Position numbers and translations under genes: made by a program
Assembly: GCA_010356995.1 (NCBI GenBank)
Contig: ML996706.1
Coordinates: forward strand, 501,789-565,788
DNA length: 64,000 nt
Reading direction: 5' to 3'
DNA from: Trichodelitschia bisporula
Lineage: Eukaryota
Part shown: one piece after another, positions 3,308-58,291 of the stretch
How positions within the stretch are numbered: position 1 is the first letter of the stretch
How the letters are laid out: each line of letters opens with the position of its first letter
The notes under the pieces: model-generated
The model's database searches: none
Seen by the model: the letters and a program-made list of their open reading frames with translations, nothing else
What the model was told of the DNA's origin: nothing

Positions 3308-6300
3308 CTAAGAGCTACCGGAGACGGTAGTAGTGCTGCCGGACCCGTAGAACGAGCTGCTACTAGCCCGGTCGCGATCCCCACCACGGTTGTTCTCCCC
3401 ACCACGGTTGTTGAAGGCCCTACCAGCAATGAAAGCTGCAGCACCATTGCCGCGAGAACCACGGAAGTTGTCATTGCGCCCCTGACGGGGGTTGGAGTTC
3501 GTACGGGTCTGGCTCCCCTCACGCCGGTTGCCATAAGAGTTCGAACGGGATTGACTGCTGTCGCGCCGGTTGGCATCGGAATCGGTACGGGAAGGACCGC
3601 CCTCCTGTCGGTTCTGATAGCCATGATTGCTGTTGCCATTGTTGCGGCCCTGAGCGTTGTCCTGGCGGCTGCTGTAGCCACCACGACCACGGCTCGAGTT
3701 CCACCGATTGTTTTGGCGATAGCCGCCGCGAGCGCTACGGTAACCGCCGCGCTCGGGCTTCACCTTGATGTAACACTTGGCGAACCGCTCTTGTCCAGGA
3801 AACTTGACGACCACTTCCACACTTCCATCCATGATCGTGGGAGAAAAGAGATGATCAGACGTAGCAACCGACTGAGTCTGAAGCTCGTCATCGATATCCG
3901 CATTCGCGTTGTCAGTTGCATTGGCGGGAAGGTGCGCGTTCTTGTGAGGAGTCGTTGGGAGATGGATCTTCGGAGTCGACGCGAATTCGCGATCCTCAAA
4001 GAGTTCCTCGCCCGTAGTCTTCGATTCCGCTGCTTGGGCGGCCTGAGCGGCAAGCTCAATACGGACATCCTGGGCCCCAAATGCGAAGCGAGAGGGACGG
4101 CGTGCCTGGACAATTCCGGAGTTGGAGCCCTTGTTGCTCTTATTGCCGAACAACGAGTTGATTTTGGCTTGCCAATCAGGCTTGCCCGTCTCATCGGGTG
4201 AGGTAGGCGGTGTATCATTCTTGGGCGGAAGACGAACCGTCGGCTTCGGATTGGGAAGGTTTACCTTCGGGTGCTGTTGAGAGCCGTCGTAGACAGGATG
4301 GTTTTCTAGCTCAGGAGGTGGAGGAGACTCTGAGGAAGCCTTGGTTCCAGCTGCCTCGCCGCGCGGGAAGAAGCGCGAGTTCTTCGTACTCTGTTGAGAA
4401 TGCGAAGCAGCCATGTTGGGTGCAACAATAGCTGTGAGAACACGGGCATCCTGCACTGAAACATGCGCAGTAGCGTCCGACTTGCCAGTGGCCATCTTGG
4501 TGACCGTAGAAGCACCACTCTCGGGAGGATTATTGGTGGTGTTGACAACCGAACCAACATTCGTCTTGGAAGGAGCATTGGCGTTAGGCTCGATCGTGAC
4601 AGTGACCCCAGCGTGCTCAAAGGTTTCCGATTTGACAACCTTGCGGTTCAGTGCAGACGTGCCGCCTGCCGTCGTCTTGTGCATATGGCCGACATCTGCG
4701 GTCTTTACCGAGACTGGCATGTTTTTCAGCATCTGTTCTTCAAAAGCCCGTCTGTTGGCCTCGTCTGCCTCCTGGAGCATCTTCGGCGCGTTTGTCCAAT
4801 CGTCGAGTGTGCTCACTTGAGCCATCTTGTGAAGTGAAGTGGGCATTGCTACCCGAGTGGTAGAAGATGGATGCGTTGTACGTGTGTGGGGGGGAGGAAT
4901 TGGAGGGAGTTGTGCAGAGGAGAGTTGTTGTGAAGTGGAAATGTTTGGGAGAACTCGAGGATGGTGGGTATTGAGAGGAGGATGACGGCCTTGGCCTGTG
5001 CTTTGGGTGTTGCGTTGCTGCTGCGTAGTAAATGTGTTGTTGCCTTCGTTCGCAGGGTTCACGTGACCAGCAACTGGCTCAAGCGTTGTAGGTGGCGGTG
5101 GCCCATGCGCAGCAGCAATACTCCGATTGTAGGCCGTGGTGTTGTACCTATTGTGCTCGAATGTTCCGTTGCCCAAGGCGCGCTCGTTGCTAGGCGGAGG
5201 CGCCCAAACGTTGGACACCGCATTGCTGCTGATAGCATTGTTGCCCCAGTTGTAGGAATCCGAGGGTAACTTCGGCTTCCAACTCGCAGACGGGGTTTCC
5301 GTCCCAACATCTCCCAGCCTCTTGTTTTCCATCGGGCCTCGAATGTTCGCATTTCCCGTTGGCTCAACTTTTGCTACGGGTTTGAATGGCTGGGGAGGCC
5401 CATGTGACTGAACTTCTGCACCAAGCCCGGGATCCGCTGCATGCCGACCCGTGAGCGAAGCCTCCGTCACAATTGACTTCTTGACGGGATGCGGCTGGTG
5501 CACTTTGATCATGCCGTACTGTGCCACCTCTCCCTCTGACGTCGGGATCGGCGGCTTCGGCGGCGATGCCACAGGAGCAGGCTTCTGAGACGGCGACTTG
5601 ACGGGCAATCGAGGCGTCTCCTTTGGCTTCTCATCGGCCAATTTCGGTGAAGGCGTCGCAGCCAATGCCGCTACCTTTAGCGCCAGACGCGCCTTGCGCT
5701 CCGTTTCTTCCTGAGCTTCCGCCTCCATCTGAAGCTGCTTCGCCAACTTCGCGCGTTCAATTTTCTCGCGCATCAAGCGGTTTTGCATGGCCACCGGATC
5801 TTCGACAGAGAGCGCAGGCGATTGGACGGGATGAGCCTCTTGCTGCGGCGTGCCGTTAGCAGCCGTTCCGGGAGGCTGGACAGCGCCTGCGGCCGAATGA
5901 CCTGTGTTGATGGCGATCGGAGCGTTCGCTATCGACGATGTGCGCGAAAACGACTTCGACGCACGATCGGTAACAGACTCTGCCTGCTCCACGCTGATGG
6001 GAGACATGCCCTCGGGCTGCACACCAAAGTCCACCGGTCGACTGACAGAGAGCCGCCGGCCAGCACTACCACCGCTGACGTTCGACGACGTGCGACGACG
6101 CGCCCACACCTCTCCGCCGCCGGAACGAGACGTTTGGAAAGCGAGAGACGGCTCCGCTGGACCTGCGGACGGCTGTGACGGGCGCTGGAGGACAGCAGGT
6201 TGACGAGGTCCGTGATCACGAACGGGAGCGCGACGCGTGTCATTGACCGGCTCGTACCGCCCAGACTGCGAATTGAACAACTCTTTGTTCCCGCGATCCT

Positions 6301-50132: not shown

Positions 50133-52549
50133 ATGGAGTCCATATCGCGCATCTCCAGCATGCTGGAAGCAGGTCCGTCTCCCCCACCACCTCTTGATAC
50201 GTACTAACCTCCCCAACAGCCCGCGACCTCACCCTCGAAGCCGCCCGCGACGCCAGCACGCGCAAACCCACCACCCGGCCCCTCCCCGCCCTCGCACTCA
50301 AAAAACTCCTCGACAGCCGGCGCGAAACCGACATCCTCGAAGGCCTGCGCAAAGTCATCTCGCTCTCCTACCAAAAAGCCCCCACCCTGCAATTCTTCTC
50401 CCACATCGTCAAGAACATCGCGTCCCCGAACCTCGAGGTTAAGAAACTAGTCTATGCGTACCTGGTCCAACATGCAGAGGAGGCGCCGGATACGGCGTTG
50501 TTGAGTATTAATACGATTCAAAAGAGTTTGAGTGATGCGGATCCGCGGTTGAGGGCCCTGGCGCTGAGGACGATGAGTAGTATCCGTGTGCCGGTTATTA
50601 GTCAGATTGTGGCACTTGGGATTAAGCGCGGGGTGGGGGATATGAGTCCGTATGTGAGGCGGGCGGCGGCGCTGGCGATTCCGAAGTGTTATCGTTTGGA
50701 TCCGGGGATGGGGCCGGAGTTGGTAAGACTGATTGCGGTGCTGCTGGGGGATAAACAGTACTATGTTGCGGGGGCGGCGGTGGTTGCGTTCCTCGAGGTG
50801 TGCCCTGAGCGGATCGAGCTTGTGCATCCGCATTACAAGGCGCTGGTGCGGAAGCTGGTGGATATGGATGAGTGGGGGCAGTTGGCGACCATGCAGATGA
50901 TGCTGGGCTATGCGCGGGCTTGTTTTCCAAGGAAGACGAGGTGGGTCAAGACTGCGAAAACCAGAGACGCGGCCAACCCGACCAAAGGCTTCTACGACTC
51001 GGAATCCTCAGACAACGACGAAGACGAGGGTGAGGAAGTTACTATTCTCGATCCGGACCTAGACTTTTTCCTCCGCGCCGCAACCCCGCTCCTCCACTCC
51101 CGCAACCCCGCCGTCATCCTCGCCGTCGCCCGCTGCTACATCTACCTCGGCGACTCCGCCTACACATCCCAGATCCCAGGGCCGCTCATCAGTCTCCTCC
51201 GCGCCCCGGCGGACATCCAACACATCGCCCTCCACAACATAACCCAGATCGCGCTCTCCCACGCCGCGCTCTTCGCGCCGTATACCAGCCACTTCCTGCT
51301 GCGCTCTACCGACCCCATTGCCATCAAGACGCTAAAACTGGATCTCCTGACGCTGTTGTTTCCCCCTTCGCCACCGACTACGCGCTCCCTGATCCTGGCT
51401 GAAATTAGCCATTTCACCGCCGCCCCGGATCCCGTGCTCGTCCGCGCCGCGGTGCGCGCGCTGGGTGCGTGCGCGACCGCCGCGCCCACACCCGCGCTTC
51501 AAAACCACTGCCTCCGCCTCCTGCTCAAGCAACTCGCGAGTCCGGACCCGCATCTCGTCGCCGCGGCGCTGGAAGTCGTGCGGCATCTCATTCAGCGGGC
51601 CCCCGAGAAACACGCTAGGACCATTGTGCGCCTGGCCAAGCATTTGGATGTGTTAAGCGCCCCCCGCGCCAGGGCGGCGATTGTCTGGCTGGTGGGGGAG
51701 TATGCGGCGCGTGCGGGGAAGGGGGGAGTTGCGCCGGATGTGTTGAGGTTGCTGGTGAGGGGGTGGGGGGGGGAGGGGGATGAGGTGAGGCGGGAGGTGC
51801 TGGGGTTGGGGGGGAAGGTTTATTTGGCTTGGTTGGGGAGTGAGGAGGGGAAGAAAGCTCTGGAGGGCGAGAAGAAGGAGGGAGGGGAGGGGGATGAGGC
51901 CGGCTGGGGCGGCGAGAGGGATGGGGAGGGGAAGGAAGAGAAGGATCCGATTCCGGCGCTGTTCGCGCATGTGTTGTTATTGGCGCGGTATACGCCCAGC
52001 TATGATCTCCGGGACAGAGCGAGGTTACTGCGCGCGTTGTTGGCCAATCCGCAAGAGGGCGCGCAACTTGCGTCTCTCCTTATGCTGGCGCCGAAACCGG
52101 CTCCACTTGCGGAGTCGAGAGCGGCGGGACGGGCGGGGTTCACGCTGGGGAGTGCGAGCTTGGTGGTTGCGGATTTGGTGGGGGAGGGGGGGGTGNNNNN
52201 NNNNNNNNNNNNNNNNNNNNNNNNNNNNNNNNNNNNNNNNNNNNNNNNNNNNNNNNNNNNNNNNNNNNNNNNNNNNNNNNNNNNNNNNGCTGGGGTTGCT
52301 GGGGGGGAGAGGAGTGCGGGGAGTGTGTTGGATGAGAGGGCGGGGGTTAAGGAGGTTGGGGTTGGGAATAAGGGGAAGACGTTGGATGATTGGCTTGCTA
52401 GTGAGGAGGAGGAGGAGGAGGAGGAGGAGGAGGAGAGTGAGGAGAGTGGGGAGGAGGATGAAGAAGAGGAGAGCGAGGAGGAGAGTGAGGACGAAAGCGA
52501 TAGCGAGGAGGATGAGGATGCGGCGCAGAGGGAGGGGCTCATGCGGTAG
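50133..52549 (+). CDS. APL6: AP-3 adaptor complex beta subunit (contains assembly gap 52196-52288)
   Basis: MESISRISSMLE / ARDLTLEAA, VKNIASPNLEVKKLVYAYL, LLSINTIQKSLSD..RALALRTMSSIRVPVI, LVDMDEWGQ, YDLRDRAR, acidic tail. Confidence 0.93.
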
Positions 52550-52585
52550 ATGTTTACGGGATGTAGATCAATCAAATACACCGGT

Positions 52586-52668
52586 ATCCCGTCAGTACTG
52601 CTAGCAATGCTTCATCGTACAGGTGGTGGTTCCCGTTGGATGTTGCTAGCATTCTCATCATTCGGGAT
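52586..52668 (-). ncRNA. Candidate box C/D RNA, copy A
   Basis: Minus strand: ATCCCG-A-ATGATGA (C) .. CCAA (D'-like) CGGG..CCTG-T-ACGATGA (C'-like) .. CTGA (D)-CGGGAT; perfect 6-bp terminal stem in k-turn register. Confidence 0.5.
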
Positions 52669-52701
52669 GGTGTTTGATCTACCGGACGCCCGCGATGATA
52701 A

Positions 52702-52880
52702 GGAAAATGAACTCTAAGCTAAAGAAAGTAGTATAGAAATGAACTCTGATTTAACGAGAGTAGATCTAACACGGAAATGAACTCTGCGTTAGCGAGAGTA
52801 GAACTAGCACGGAAATGAACTCTAAGTTAAGAGTAGTACGGAAATAAACTCTAAGTTAAAGAGTAGTACGAAAAAACTTC
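52702..52880. repeat. Degenerate minisatellite GAAAT(G/A)AACTCT-n-AGAGTAG, ~6 units
   Basis: Seen directly; ACTCT/AGAGT inverted arms in most units. Confidence 0.85.
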
Positions 52881-53028
52881 ATGTTAACGCCCGGCTCACC
52901 TACCAGCCCACCGGCCGGGACGCTTAACTTTACGAAGTACTTAAACGCGGCACATAGAAGGCAATCGCGTGGATACTAAAGTACTGTACAGTACAGTAAG
53001 AGAGAGAACCTACTATGGAAGCTAGCCG

Positions 53029-53125
53029 GTAGATATTACGGGATATAGGTTAATCGCACAATATCCTGTCAGAATTGCTAGCGTTGCTTTATCGTATGGG
53101 TGGTAGTCCCGTTTGAGCTACTGGA
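53029..53125. repeat. Truncated copy B of the ~100-bp unit (retains D box, lacks C box)
   Basis: Aligns with 52546-52668 and 53229-53348. Confidence 0.75.
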
Positions 53126-53264
53126 AGTATAAGTTGATAATGGAAATAAACTTTCAGTTAATGAAAGAAGTATGGAAAAACTTCCCTGTTAACTTCACGA
53201 AGTACACGGACATAGTAAACTGAAAGCAGTAGATATTACGGGATACAGATCAACCACAGCGGTA

Positions 53265-53348
53265 TCCCGTCAGAATTGCCAGCGGTGCTTCATCGTGCGG
53301 GTGGTATTCCCGTTAGATGGGGCCGCTGGCGTTAATCATCATTCCGGA
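53265..53348 (-). ncRNA. Candidate box C/D RNA, copy C
   Basis: Minus strand: TCCG-GA-ATGATGA .. CTAA-CGGG-AATACCA-CCCG-C-ACGATGA .. CTGA-CGGG; lies ~70 nt downstream of a minus-strand AG/GTAAGT donor at 53418. Confidence 0.5.
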
Positions 53349-53536
53349 GTTGCTGCGGAAGGTAAGGCCTCCTAGATAAAGGTAGAGAAAGCGGACACGG
53401 GCGCGTTGGCGAACTTACCTGGCTGGTCTTTTTGGACTGCGGTTGCTGGAGGGTGGGGTGTTGTGGTGGCCTCAGGGGCGGAGGAGATGGGGACCTAGAT
53501 CGATGTAAGCGTGTTTGGGATGAATTTGAGAAGATG

Positions 53537-54730
53537 TACGAGAGATCTGCCTCGTGAGAGGACAAGAAGGGATCCGGGAAGAGTACGAAAGAAATCTGCC
53601 CTATGGGAAAGGCGAGAGTGAGGTAAGACTACGAAAGAGGTCTGCCTGGAAGGAGAGTGAAGGAGGATTGCGAAGGAACTCTGCCTCGAAGGAGAGTGAA
53701 GGGGGATTAGGAAAGAACTCTGCCTCGAAGGAGAGTGAAGGAGGATTACGAAAGAACTCTGTCTCGAAGGAGAGTAAAGGAGGATTATGAAGGGACTCTG
53801 CCTCACGGAACAGCGAGAGTGAAAGCAGACTACCAAAGAACTCTGCCTCACGGGAACAGCGAGAGTGGAAGCATACTACGAAAGAGGGCGACGAAAGATG
53901 GCACGACAGAACCCTGTCTCTGGGGACGAGAGTGGATACAAGGAGATACGAAAAAAGTCTGTCCTCAAGGATCAGAGTGGGAAAAGAGATACGAAAGAGG
54001 TCTGTCCCTAAGGACAAGACTAGATCCAGAAAGGTTACAAAAGCGTCGGTCTAAAAGGGATACGAAAGAACTCTATCCCTAAGGACTAGGGTGGATAAAT
54101 GGTACGAAAGAGTCTATCTAAAAGGGATACGAAGGAACTCGGTCCCATGGACTAGAGTAGATCCAAAAAGGTTACGAAAGAGTCGGTCCACAAAGGACAA
54201 GAGTAGCTACAAAGATACGAAAGAGTCTATCAAACGGGATACTAACGAACTCTATCTCAAGGACTAGAGTGGATATAATGTCGGCATACCCAATGTCGGG
54301 ATACCCGAAAAGCAGGCTTGGCAAGGCAAACACCGAAGTGGCGAAGATGGACGACGCCGAAGTCCGATGAAATTCAGGAACGTCCTGAAGGACCCTCACG
54401 GACATATACTGTTCCTTCTGTAAAGTAGAGAAAAAAAAAAGCTGGGCAATCAATCCTTTCTCACACAATTCTTTGAGCACTTCCGCCAGGATATAACGAC
54501 ACAAGAGTCTAGCAAAAGGGATACGAAAGAACTCTATCCTAAGGACTAGAGTGGATGCAATGATATAAGAGTCTATCAAACGGGATACGAAAGAACTCTG
54601 TCCCAGGGACTAGAGTAGATAAAAGATACGAAAGAGTCCATCCAAGGGAGACATGAAAGAACTCTGTCCCAAGGACTAGAGTGAATAAAAAACTACGGAA
54701 GAGGTCTGTCTCCAAGGACTAGACCGGATC
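53537..54730. repeat. Complex minisatellite of ~26 TACGAAAGA-led units, many with ACTCT-n-AGAGT hairpins; unique ~220-bp insert at ~54275-54495
   Basis: 39-bp units at 53630-53785, then alternating long (hairpin) and short units; counted manually. Confidence 0.88.
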
Positions 54731-55693
54731 TAAGAAGAATACGAGATACCTTGCCAACCTCTAAAGACATGGAGAAAGTGGAGGGGGTGGAGGAGGTGGA
54801 GGAGATGGAGGAGGTGGACGGGGTGGAGGAGGTAGAGGAGTTGGTCGAGTGGAGGAGTTGGGTGAGGGAGTTGGTTGAGTGAATGTGTTGTTCCGGAGGA
54901 GTTTTTCCAGTGGCGGAGCTGTGTGGGGGGTTGGTTGGATGGAGGAGCTGTGTAGGTGGAGGAGGTGAGTGGGTGAATGAGATGTGTGGAGGAAGGAGCT
55001 GTGTGCTGGAAGGGGCTGTGTGGGTTGAATGAGTTATTCAAGTGAATGGGATTGGGGGAAATGGAAGGCATGGCGGACGAGACAGCAGCTACGGGATGGA
55101 GGGTTGCTGAAGGCGCCCAGGGGCTGAATGGAAAGTACTGCTGCTGTCAGGTCTCTAAGAAAGGGCTGCAGGCAAACGCTGGACTTGAGCTACAGAAATG
55201 GAAGGCCATGTGCTACGAGACCGAGTCTACGGGAGGGAGGTCTACAACGGGAGGGAGGTCTGCTAAAGGCGCCGGAGGCTGGAGTGGAAGCTGCGGTTGC
55301 TGTGTTGGTCAGTAAAAAAGGGTGACTTGGCTAGGCTGGACACTGGTTAGGAAAATGGAAGGCCCAGCTCTAGTCACAATGGCAGTGTTTGCACTCAGCC
55401 GCACATGACGCCGAGGGGAGCGGCTCAAGGCCGAGACGACAGGAAGGACATTCTATCGGAAATGGGTCTAAAGAAACAGCTGCCAGCTCAGAGCGCCGGT
55501 TTGAACAAATGAAATGTCTTCCCCATTCCTTTCCAATCCATCTGCAGAGCTACGAGGTTTCTTTAGGGATTTTGTGAACAGGCGCATGCCAAAGCATGGC
55601 ATCACCTACCCACGGTCAACCTCGTCTAAACCGGTGCCGCGATCTATTGGGTGTTAGTATTATTCAGCTGAAAGGTAAGGGATACATACCGCT

Positions 55694-57168
55694 TTAAGCA
55701 GCCGCGGCAGAGTCGGCGCCGCCAGCGGAGGGGTCGCGCTTAAAGCGCTTCCCGTCTCCACTGCGCTCACCCTCATCCTCGTCCTCACGAGGACGCTTCA
55801 GGTCATCCGTGAGGTTACCACCTTCCTGTGCATTCTTCAGGGCGGACTTCTTGGCCTTGGCCGAAGAAGTGCCCGAAGTGCCGGTGGCATTCGAGGTTTG
55901 GGTGGCGACGACGCCGTGCCCGGTGGGAAGCTGGTCACCAGCGGAGGAGGAGGAGGGAGAAAATCCCTCAACGTCGCCGGAATCTCCCGTGCCCCCCGCT
56001 CCCGAGCTTGTCGTGGCCTTCGCCTGAGCAGCCAGTTTGGCTGTCAGCTCGGCATGGACCGCTCGGAACTCCTCATTAGAATTCGTGGTGCTAGAGAGGT
56101 TAGTGATGTTTGAGATGGGAGCTTTAAACTTACACTGGAGCGGGCATCTGATGGGGGGCCACACCGACTTGCCCGAAAGCAAACGCCTGGTTGACTGCCT
56201 CCTGCCCCTGATAAGTCAGGGGCTGAGTTGCCTGGCCAAGATACCGAGACATCTCGAAGGCAGCCAAGTTGAGCACCTGGTCAACAGTGAGATTCCCCGA
56301 TCTCATCACGTTGACCAGCTGCGGGCCAACCATCGTATCCGAGAAGGTGTTTACGATGTGGCGCCGCAGCTCCGGATCCTCCAACTGAGGCGGCGGCTCG
56401 TCACGAACGCGCTGCGCCAGGAAGGAAGAGCCGGCGATGCTCAAGTAGTTGAAGGCGTTAGCCAGGGAGTCTGTTCAAAGTGTTAGTGATACATAAGTCA
56501 ATGATGAAGGTATATAGCCGTGATTCGATGAGAGAGAAGATTCATCGTATAGATCAGGATGTTGTGAGCCAAAAGTTTGTTCGTTTAATCTCTTACCGCC
56601 GTGGCTCGCATCATACTGCCTATCAAGGCCAGGGACATTGCCAGTTGGAAGGGGAGCGTGGACGCGCTCAATTGCATCCGGACCGCGCAACTGATCGCCC
56701 GTCAAGGCCGGACGGATCGCAGCATGATCGCGACGGATCCTCGAACCGATGGGGACAAACCGACCAGAAGTCATAACACTAAAAGTGTCAGCGAAACTAG
56801 AAAGTTGAGGAAGGGACTTACAGAGACGTCTCCGCAACAGGAGGAGTGTACTGGGCCGGTGGAGGAGGAGGCCGCGGAGGTGGATTCCTCCCCCCCTGGC
56901 CAGGCTGACCACGGCCACCGTAACCACCGTCACGGCCACCACCCAAACCTTGGCGGGAGTTGTCGTGCTGGGAGCGGTCCCAACTGTCGCGATCATCGCG
57001 GCGGGAATAGTCTTCGCCATAGTTTCTGTTGCGAGCGCCGACCTTTGGCTTCATCAAACGTCCCTTTTCGTCCTTGCGGACGAGACGATTCTCGGAACCC
57101 TTGCGATCATCGCCATTGCCGCCAGAACCAGAACCCATAGCACCACCACCAGAGATACCGGACGACAT
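55694..57168 (-). CDS. Orphan four-exon protein (420 aa) with Gly/Arg-rich N-terminus and bipartite-NLS-like C-terminus
   Basis: Introns 56779-56821, 56471-56596 and 56091-56133 (GTAAG donors, CTRAC branch points, YAG acceptors) join four ORFs in frame (1263 nt). C-terminal LKRPRE..GKRFKR. Confidence 0.8.
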
Positions 57169-58291
57169 TGTTGAAGGTCCGAAAGACTTGACTGAGAAGT
57201 CTGAGGTGAGGAGTCTTAAAGGCAGTGGGGAGTATGAAGAGGTGCTGAGTTTGATCAGGTCAGTAGGTCTTGCGACAATGGAAGGAGAAACTTACACAAT
57301 GAAGGCCTTGGGTGAAATGAACCGCACACAGGAGGATGCAGTGAGTGCAGGTGGATGCAGAGGCAATGAGAGTTGATGTGAGGTAAAGACAGCAAAAGCT
57401 GGCGAAAAGTAGAAGGGACACAGTGAAGCTGGTAAAAATTCAAACAATGCTGACTGAAAGACAGGATTTGATATTGGAAGTCAGACTTTGAAATCAGACT
57501 TTGAATCGCTGTGGTTGACGAGGAGAAGAAGAGGATGGCTGCAGAGGCCCGGCTTTTAAAGAAACCTGTGGGGAAATAAATCAACTAGCGAGTGAATATT
57601 AATTGGTCCTGAGAACACTGGCAGCAACTTACACGCAAACCCACACGTTTTGTTGGTGTTGGCCTGCAACTATATATCTATCAGTGAGCGTGATTGCCTA
57701 TTCGGGAAAGGCAGCGTTCGATGGGCCCGTGCGCGTCACTGGAAATCGTAGCAAAGCTGCACCCGGAAAAACTTTGGGCCGGCATTCGGCCGTGCTAAGC
57801 CAAAAAGGGTAAACACAATGCATCATATACAATTATATCGATGAGTGGGAGTATATGGAGGAAGGAGCTCATCATCGTGGTCGTGCCTGCGCGATATGTA
57901 CCCGCGACTCCAGACATGAAGTCAAGCACCGCCCCTTGGCGCGGGTGAACATTCCGCCGAAGATTGTAGACATTGGCGCCGGGTTTCCCCAACTTCACAT
58001 CGCGCCTCGCATCCGCCACCATCAAACCGCTGCAATCACTCCCACGAACGCAGTGCGCAGCTCCTTTTCCCGTCCCATGACCCGCGTGCGATCGCGCTGT
58101 CAACTCATATAATCGCCCACCGGTGTAGTCCCATGATAGCTCCGTTCTCCGCACGCGCCGCCGCAAAGCTTGCCACCCACAGCCGCAGTATGCGCCTTTG
58201 CCCTGCCCCTCCCGCGCCGCAGACCAAGACCATGCCCGTTCGGCTCCACCTCCACCCTTAAGTTTGTACCGCGTTTGCAGACTGTAGAAAG

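Follow-up and report, generated by a model that had tools for sequence, protein, structure and literature searches.

Box C/D-like hairpin copies with mutually paired guide positions in a fungal repeat array

Three hairpin copies in a non-coding repeat array

The window analysed here comprises 64,000 nucleotides (nt) of contig ML996706.1 from the fungus Trichodelitschia bisporula (GenBank assembly GCA_010356995.1, positions 501,789 to 565,788 of the forward strand). Next to the gene for an AP-3 complex beta subunit, a degenerate repeat array embeds three hairpin copies, A, B and C, that resemble small nucleolar RNAs (snoRNAs) of the box C/D class on the minus strand (Table 1). A preliminary description made from the letters alone had reported two such RNAs and a third, damaged copy, and this observation is confirmed and real: the boxes ATGATGA, CTAA or CCAA, CGGG/CC(C/T)G, ACGATGA and CTGA of copies A and C all lie at the minus-strand positions it had given, and copy B has indeed lost its C box, together with the 5′ arm. 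No further copy occurs in the 64-kb window. A conserved tail of approximately 40 nt follows each copy on its 3′ side, forming a CGGGAT..ATCCCG hairpin that competes with the terminal stem for its 3′ strand, and terminating in ATCTAC, and the putative antisense elements between the boxes span 15–19 nt. Among the three window copies, only copy C carries inverted ends, CGGTAGAT..ATCTACCG, and reading of the sequence revealed no flanking target-site duplication.

Table 1 Features of the hairpin copies and of the array that embeds them (window coordinates)
Feature	Position	Strand	Remarks
Copy A	53265-53348, 84 nt	minus	box C/D-like hairpin
Copy A C box	53342-53336	minus	ATGATGA
Copy A 5′ arm	53330-53323	minus	GCCAGCGG
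Copy A D′-like box	53316-53313	minus	CTAA
Copy A apical stem	53312-53309 and 53301-53298	minus	CGGG/CCCG
Copy A C′-like box	53296-53290	minus	ACGATGA
Copy A 3′ arm	53285-53278	minus	CCGCTGGC
Copy A D box	53273-53270	minus	CTGA
Copy A 3′ tail	53229-53269	minus	hairpin CGGGATAC..GTATCCCG (53269-53239), then TAATATCTAC
Copy B	53029-53118	minus	5′-truncated; starts at D′-like position (CAAA)
Copy B C′ box	53095-53089	minus	mutated to ACGATAA
Copy B 3′ arm	53084-53077	minus	ACGCTAGC
Copy B D box	53072-53069	minus	CTGA; tail kept
Copy C	52586-52668, 83 nt	minus	box C/D-like hairpin
Copy C terminal stem, 6 bp		minus	ATCCCG/CGGGAT
Copy C C box	52661-52655	minus	ATGATGA
Copy C 5′ arm	52650-52643	minus	GCTAGCAA
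Copy C D′-like box	52639-52636	minus	CCAA
Copy C C′-like box	52618-52612	minus	ACGATGA
Copy C 3′ arm	52607-52600	minus	TTGCTAGC
Copy C D box	52595-52592	minus	CTGA
Copy C 3′ tail	52546-52591	minus	hairpin 52591-52557, then TAAACATCTAC
Copy C upstream segment	52663-52684	minus	CGGTAGATCAAACACCATCCCG, inverted copy of own tail
Degenerate repeat array, non-coding	52700-54750, about 2-2.2 kb		periods about 29-64 nt (29, 38, 39, 46, 64); embeds the copies

Many units of the array can form a short ACTCT..AGAGT hairpin. The units around the copies are likewise hairpin-prone, and the pair GTATCCC/GGGATAC is common to these units and the copy tails. A mobile-element or coding origin of the units found no support: there is no ATG-initiated open reading frame (ORF) of at least 50 amino acids in 52720–54170, and the locus gives no Pfam match at curated score and no mobile-element ORF or domain. 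At the upstream edge of the array, GAGG(A/T)G-type repeats of 9 and 17 nt occupy 54766–54992 on the plus strand. Read on the minus strand this block is rich in pyrimidines, and it might be a CT-rich tract close to the promoter of a minus-strand transcript.

The AP-3 beta gene (50198–52549, plus strand) encodes a product with an acidic tail and is convergent with the hairpin copies. Its product is 99% identical to a protein of T. bisporula, a Dothideomycete, that has been named by NCBI, followed by matches in Tothia and Venturia at 62–63% identity. The complement of its stop codon, TAG at 52547–52549, supplies the last bases of the copy C tail. An assembly gap of 93 N (52196–52288) lies inside the coding region, a stretch that the NCBI-named protein omits. 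On the other side of the array, 55643–57633 holds two well-expressed minus-strand genes with five GT..AG introns of 43–51 nt, confirmed by contig joints (CT..AC ends on the plus strand).

Divergence, fold and transcription of the copies

In both full copies the two guide positions are complementary to each other, GCCAGCGG to CCGCTGGC in copy A and GCTAGCAA to TTGCTAGC in copy C, giving a GC-rich helix of 8–9 bp. The preliminary description had noted that the guides of the two copies differ by three compensatory pairs, and the comparison bore it out: of nine pairs in the arm helix, three differ on both sides, no pair differs on a single side, and one is unpaired (C.A in copy A). The helix has 14 G/C sites; if six of these are changed, three complete pairs have a probability of 35/3003 = 0.012, a figure that assumes independent mutation. 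The copies are 82% identical overall (117 aligned positions), and the differences are unevenly distributed: none of the 18 box positions differs, and 14 of 28 guide-segment columns do, as against 7 of 59 other RNA columns (Fisher p = 0.00027), with 15 of 55 in the tail. Sites at risk from repeat-induced point mutation (RIP) point in the same direction, as all four TpG sites within boxes are intact and 8 of 15 outside them are mutated, although the resulting estimate (0.47^4 = 0.05) is only mildly significant.

This pattern of divergence is stronger evidence than the layout of the boxes. We scanned both strands of the 64 kb for RTGATGA, a CTGA 50–125 nt further on and a terminal stem of at least four pairs, and found copies A and C as the sole sites in the window, each with every box in the expected order and spacing. 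The same layout arose by chance at a mean of 0.31 per window in 200 Markov shuffles, and at 0.015 when a C′-like box was also required. The layout alone is nevertheless weak evidence, because the C′ criterion was picked after the data had been seen and the two copies count as one event.

According to sequence and predicted fold, the terminal motif of copy C matches the C/D kink-turn (k-turn) consensus exactly, with a 6-bp C-stem, an A-A-U bulge, G.A/A.G, U.U and G-C, and copy A has the same asymmetric loop. RNAfold z-scores on the minus strand were −3.09 for copy A and −4.59 for copy C. The internal motif behaves differently: D′ reads CUAA in copy A, CCAA in copy C and CAAA in copy B, with no GA for sheared pairs, and in the RNAfold structure the C′ GAUG is instead bound to a conserved CAUC that immediately precedes D′ on its 5′ side. 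Degenerate D′ boxes are frequent in eukaryotes. Of the double k-turn layout put forward in the preliminary description, only the terminal C/D pair fits the consensus, and a second k-turn at the internal C′/D′ pair is not supported; because D′ lacks the GA that would form G.A pairs, the term is overstated. Copy C is also able to form a rod of approximately 140 nt (−52 kcal/mol), because an inverted copy of its tail sits upstream; copy A has no such segment.

Evidence of transcription came from contigs built from two sequencing runs of one sample in one study, whose type was guessed; the contigs include spliced forms of neighbouring genes. Four contigs, at 52475–52757, 52804–53220, 53205–53977 and 53226–53740, match the window with 0 differences and without joints, and because they span the copies, A, B and C are all present, unspliced, on RNA-derived contigs. 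The contig over copy C could be part of the AP-3 beta 3′ untranslated region. No contig covered the bins 54913–55313, a gap from which nothing is concluded. A candidate intron around copy A, from GTAAGT at 53417 to CAG at 53222–53220, was rejected as unsupported, with two contigs bridging the GTAAGT unspliced and no joint, although contigs may lose rarer forms.

Elsewhere in the array, the summed contig depth over 54279–54510 reached 19,406 (X1) and 8,029 (X2), as against roughly 20–125 over most genes at 55.3–58.1 kb. Every contig there reads C at 54324, where the window has A, and an A-to-G difference occurs at 54311; a non-canonical joint connects 54360 to 54456 (AG..TC), and loose contig ends lie at 54279 and 54359. 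This segment looks like abundant RNA from a paralogous, slightly different locus. It had neither an Rfam match (best Giardia U2, E = 0.064) nor a folding signal (z −0.44 to 0.70); it resembles none of the ribosomal DNA (rDNA) that we fetched and has no second copy in the window.

Readings of the copies

Our preferred reading, which we hold tentatively and at slightly less than an even chance, is that the copies are a lineage-specific orphan C/D-type RNA with closed guides, tandem-duplicated in a transcribed repeat array. A hairpin unit of approximately 125 nt would have been duplicated locally to give two full copies and a truncated one, and minus-strand transcription of the repeat-rich non-coding locus would yield a long precursor. 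In it, the terminal stem together with the C and D boxes would fold into a canonical k-turn (3-nt bulge, tandem G.A, U.U, G-C) that may recruit Snu13 and then Nop58, Nop56 and fibrillarin. Exonucleases could shorten the precursor as far as the particle, so that an RNA of approximately 84 nt is left, and endonucleases may enter at the hairpin that immediately follows each D box on its 3′ side. The product would be a closed C/D ribonucleoprotein built like the 3′ domain of U3, with its arm helix kept through the three compensatory changes. Because both antisense positions are locked in an 8–9-bp helix, such a particle would most likely be no guide for methylation of ribosomal RNA (rRNA); its role may be structural, for example in capping or stabilizing a portion of the host transcript, or it may as yet lack any role. 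On sequence grounds, a stable RNA from the copies is a candidate only, and the finding is moderately interesting and less secure than the preliminary description had scored it.

A bolder version of this reading appears unlikely to us. It would make the copies stably expressed closed C/D particles whose guides are kept paired by compensatory evolution, a guide-less scaffold resembling the 3′ domain of U3 in shape, whose boxes survive RIP under selection. They might then act as a snoRNA-protein cap stabilizing or localizing part of a repeat-rich long non-coding RNA (lncRNA), or as a clamp whose arms invade both strands of a target helix.

A number of observations weigh against an orphan C/D-type RNA. 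The C/D layout without C′, at its chance frequency of 0.31 per window, is not rare over many windows. In copy A the terminal stem has four of five pairs and a G.G mismatch, and in a 128-nt fold the tail hairpin takes the 3′ strand of that stem, competing via CGGGA; the D′ sequences, moreover, do not support an internal k-turn in any copy. Folding does not fix the strand, because copy A has its more stable fold on the plus strand (−37.1 kcal/mol, as against −28.0 kcal/mol on the minus strand); a single G.U pair is minus-strand-specific. The contigs at the copies give no strand, ends or level and no sign of a discrete small RNA, and they bridge the GTAAGT at 53417 unspliced. A scan of metagenome contigs with the pattern of boxes and core gave 0 matches and hence no homologue, an absence that says little because the nearest sequenced relative has just 63% AP-3 beta identity. 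The Rfam scan that the preliminary description had proposed as a check found no match at gathering score in the whole 64-kb window, which is also in line with orphan status. In E-value mode, over 52300–53700 and 53900–55000, it returned only nuoG (E = 1.1), U3 (E = 0.74), snoTBR5 and Giardia U2, all far below threshold.

The last points against this reading come from base composition. The array has a TpA/ApT of 1.21 and a (CpA+TpG)/(ApC+GpT) of 0.79, where the genes on its flanks have about 0.6 and 1.2, and RIP-type indices are limited to 52.5–54.8 kb. By the thresholds for RIP (TpA/ApT >0.89, (CpA+TpG)/(ApC+GpT) <1.03) both indices fall on the RIP side. Copies A and C differ by 17 transitions and 4 transversions, with 8 of the 17 transitions in CpA/TpA, a profile typical of genome-defence repeats.

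These data lead to the main rival, a real though doubtful possibility: that the copies are a non-functional, decaying repeat, an imperfect palindrome and possibly the relic of a dead snoRNA, tandem-duplicated in a minisatellite-like array and degraded by RIP. The boxes would be inherited or due to chance, the ‘compensatory’ pairs would come from RIP at symmetric contexts combined with template-switch correction, and the RNA cover would be incidental. Besides the confined RIP-type indices and the excess of transitions, this account draws on the plainly degraded copy B, on the surrounding hairpin-prone units that share GTATCCC/GGGATAC with the tails, on copy C as a long hairpin with inverted ends, and on the lack of a homologue in the metagenome scan and of an Rfam family. 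The preliminary description had itself warned that RIP acting on both strands of a palindrome might explain the covariation, and the caveat is justified, because the composition of the array is RIP-type and the A–C changes are rich in transitions; it holds for part of the evidence. RIP accounts well for one compensatory pair, C-G to U-A: one arm carries CpA, the other TpG, and both are in the context that it favours. In this class of fungi, RIP has a preference for CpA. The other two pairs (GG/CC to AA/UU) lie in CpG and CpC contexts, so RIP explains two of the three poorly.

Template switching, which can restore perfect arms by a neutral route, is reported to create and maintain perfect hairpin stems in quasi-palindromes (PMC8794818, PMC3820800), and these reports also speak for decay. 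Uniform decay does not predict, however, that boxes and core should be far more conserved than tail and guides. The asymmetric internal loop of an exact C/D k-turn, retained in both full copies, is a further point against it. The absence of a mobile-element ORF or Pfam domain, and the confinement of inverted ends to copy C with no target-site duplication seen, likewise speak against a decaying repeat.

Another function of the hairpin, as a Dicer-type small-RNA precursor, a structural or regulatory module of a lncRNA, or an antisense module at the AP-3 beta 3′ end, seems improbable. It would suit the rod of copy C (approximately 140 nt, −52 kcal/mol), the chain of hairpin-prone repeats on RNA-derived contigs and the overlap of the copy C tail with the AP-3 beta stop codon. 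Copy A, however, has no long rod, the stems are interrupted and at most 9 bp long, which makes them poor Dicer substrates, and the retention of exact C and D boxes would be left unexplained.

We regard as very improbable that the copies are canonical 2′-O-methylation guides, in which the arm helix would open and the D and/or D′ guide would pair with rRNA, small nuclear RNA or another RNA. The spacing of 15–19 nt between boxes suits antisense elements, yet an 8-bp helix rich in GC ties up the guides, the D′ box is degenerate and there is no likeness to curated snoRNA families. Candidate targets were sought in surrogate rDNA, namely 110 loci (255,780 bases) taken from metagenome contigs via a universal primer site that gave 0 matches in viral contigs, of which 3 held complete 18S-5.8S-28S units by Rfam and 107 were partial. 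One of these loci (L029) has a group I intron within the 18S gene (5748–6103), and another (L031, on a 174-kb contig) matched the primer site and has no rRNA by Rfam. The target rule demanded a paired box+5 position, the fifth nucleotide upstream of D or D′, and 60 shuffles were made per guide. Against the three complete eukaryotic units, the four guides scored at best 8.5, 9.5, 9.0 and 10.5, values equalled by 97%, 73%, 85% and 33% of shuffles. Of all 110 loci, 11 offer the copy A D guide a 16-nt pairing site in 18S (12 Watson–Crick pairs, one G.U, one mismatch, box+5 paired), which would favour a guide; however, 3 of 10 shuffled versions of this guide recur as well, in 24, 11 and 26 loci, copy C does not match the site, and no other site recurs. 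The earlier suggestion of an orphan or structural RNA rather than an rRNA methylation guide is consistent with this null result and with the absence of an Rfam family.

Further relations to rDNA were considered and set aside. The units are not clearly rDNA-derived or antisense to rDNA: blastn of the locus against the 110 loci gave no match, and in local alignments of copies A and C the similarity was not clearly above shuffles (1 of 100 shuffles matched A in sense orientation, and 10–13 matched the remaining three alignments). Nor do the arms appear to mimic or target the variable 18S hairpin upstream of TTCTTAGRGGGAC, as 24 such hairpins share at most 6–8 nt with them, out of box+5 register by eye. 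A 42-nt stretch antisense to copy B (53040–53081, plus strand) reaches an alignment score of 30 with conserved 18S of one locus (L069), where 100 shuffles scored at most 29, a match that is borderline over six tests and probably chance. That 18S region would also have a complement in ACCACCACC, the apical loop of copy C.

Degenerate, heavily RIP-mutated U3 pseudogenes with C′/D and B/C domains are the least probable explanation: the Rfam U3 model (RF00012) aligns to 52753–52587, where its terminal C′/D stem falls on copy C's boxes and arm helix, and the order C...D′...C′...D mirrors the C′...B...C...D of U3, but the alignment reaches 15.8 bits against a gathering score of 34 (E = 0.74), copy A has no U3 match and no box A/A′ region is recognised. 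The weak alignment reflects architecture, not membership.

Should the preferred reading of an orphan C/D-type RNA be true, the locus would offer a clear example, in a fungus, of orphan C/D RNAs with antisense positions that are closed on each other and held closed by compensatory change. It would bear on the origin of snoRNAs (hairpin first, guides later) and on the roles of target-less C/D particles. It would also mean that snoRNA paralogues can persist in a RIP-marked region, although a Neurospora study proposes that RIP there hinders the origin of snoRNA isoforms (PMC2780460). If it is not real, the locus is a warning that a palindromic repeat under RIP can mimic a covarying structured RNA.

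Comparison with known systems

The copies share with fungal C/D snoRNAs, the partners of Snu13, Nop56, Nop58 and fibrillarin, the AUGAUGA and CUGA boxes, a stem in k-turn register, a length of approximately 84 nt and an internal C′-like box. Unlike those RNAs, they have antisense positions that pair together, a D′ without GA, pairing with the surrogate rDNA not above chance and no Rfam family. Neurospora C/D snoRNAs are placed, in the same study, mostly in introns or in UHG-like non-coding clusters and host genes, and the copies resemble such clusters in lying in a non-coding transcribed locus (PMC2780460). The study also describes the snoRNA genes of N. crassa as mostly singletons with rare paralogues and proposes RIP as the reason; here, in contrast, tandem paralogues lie in RIP-marked DNA, and the contigs reveal no surrounding intron (PMC2780460). 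Orphan families are listed in ‘The fungal snoRNAome’ (PMC5824354).

With RIP-mutated, template-switch-corrected quasi-palindromes the copies have in common the RIP-type indices, the transition bias and arms that stay perfect despite divergence. They differ from them in that boxes and core are spared while the guides diverge, and in that two of the three double changes fall outside CpA.

The 3′ domain of U3 has a terminal C′/D k-turn, a helix and an internal B/C k-turn, arranged in the order C′...B...C...D, and has no guide function. The copies are likewise rod-shaped: a terminal C/D-type k-turn is directly followed by a closed helix, and a second C-like box lies higher in the rod. Unlike U3, they have no recognised 5′ domain boxes A′/A, the G.A pairs of box B/C are missing from their internal motif, and the model score is 15.8 against 34 bits.

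Also comparable are the mammalian SNORD115/SNORD116 arrays, which are tandem orphan C/D units in non-coding hosts, and the sno-lncRNAs. Unlike SNORD115/SNORD116, the present locus has two to three copies, belongs to a fungus and displays no layout of one unit per intron, with contigs that run past both copies. Like them, it has locally repeated C/D units within a repetitive non-coding transcript, with no rRNA target found, and, as in sno-lncRNAs, its two units, separated by 680 nt, might in principle cap the RNA between them.

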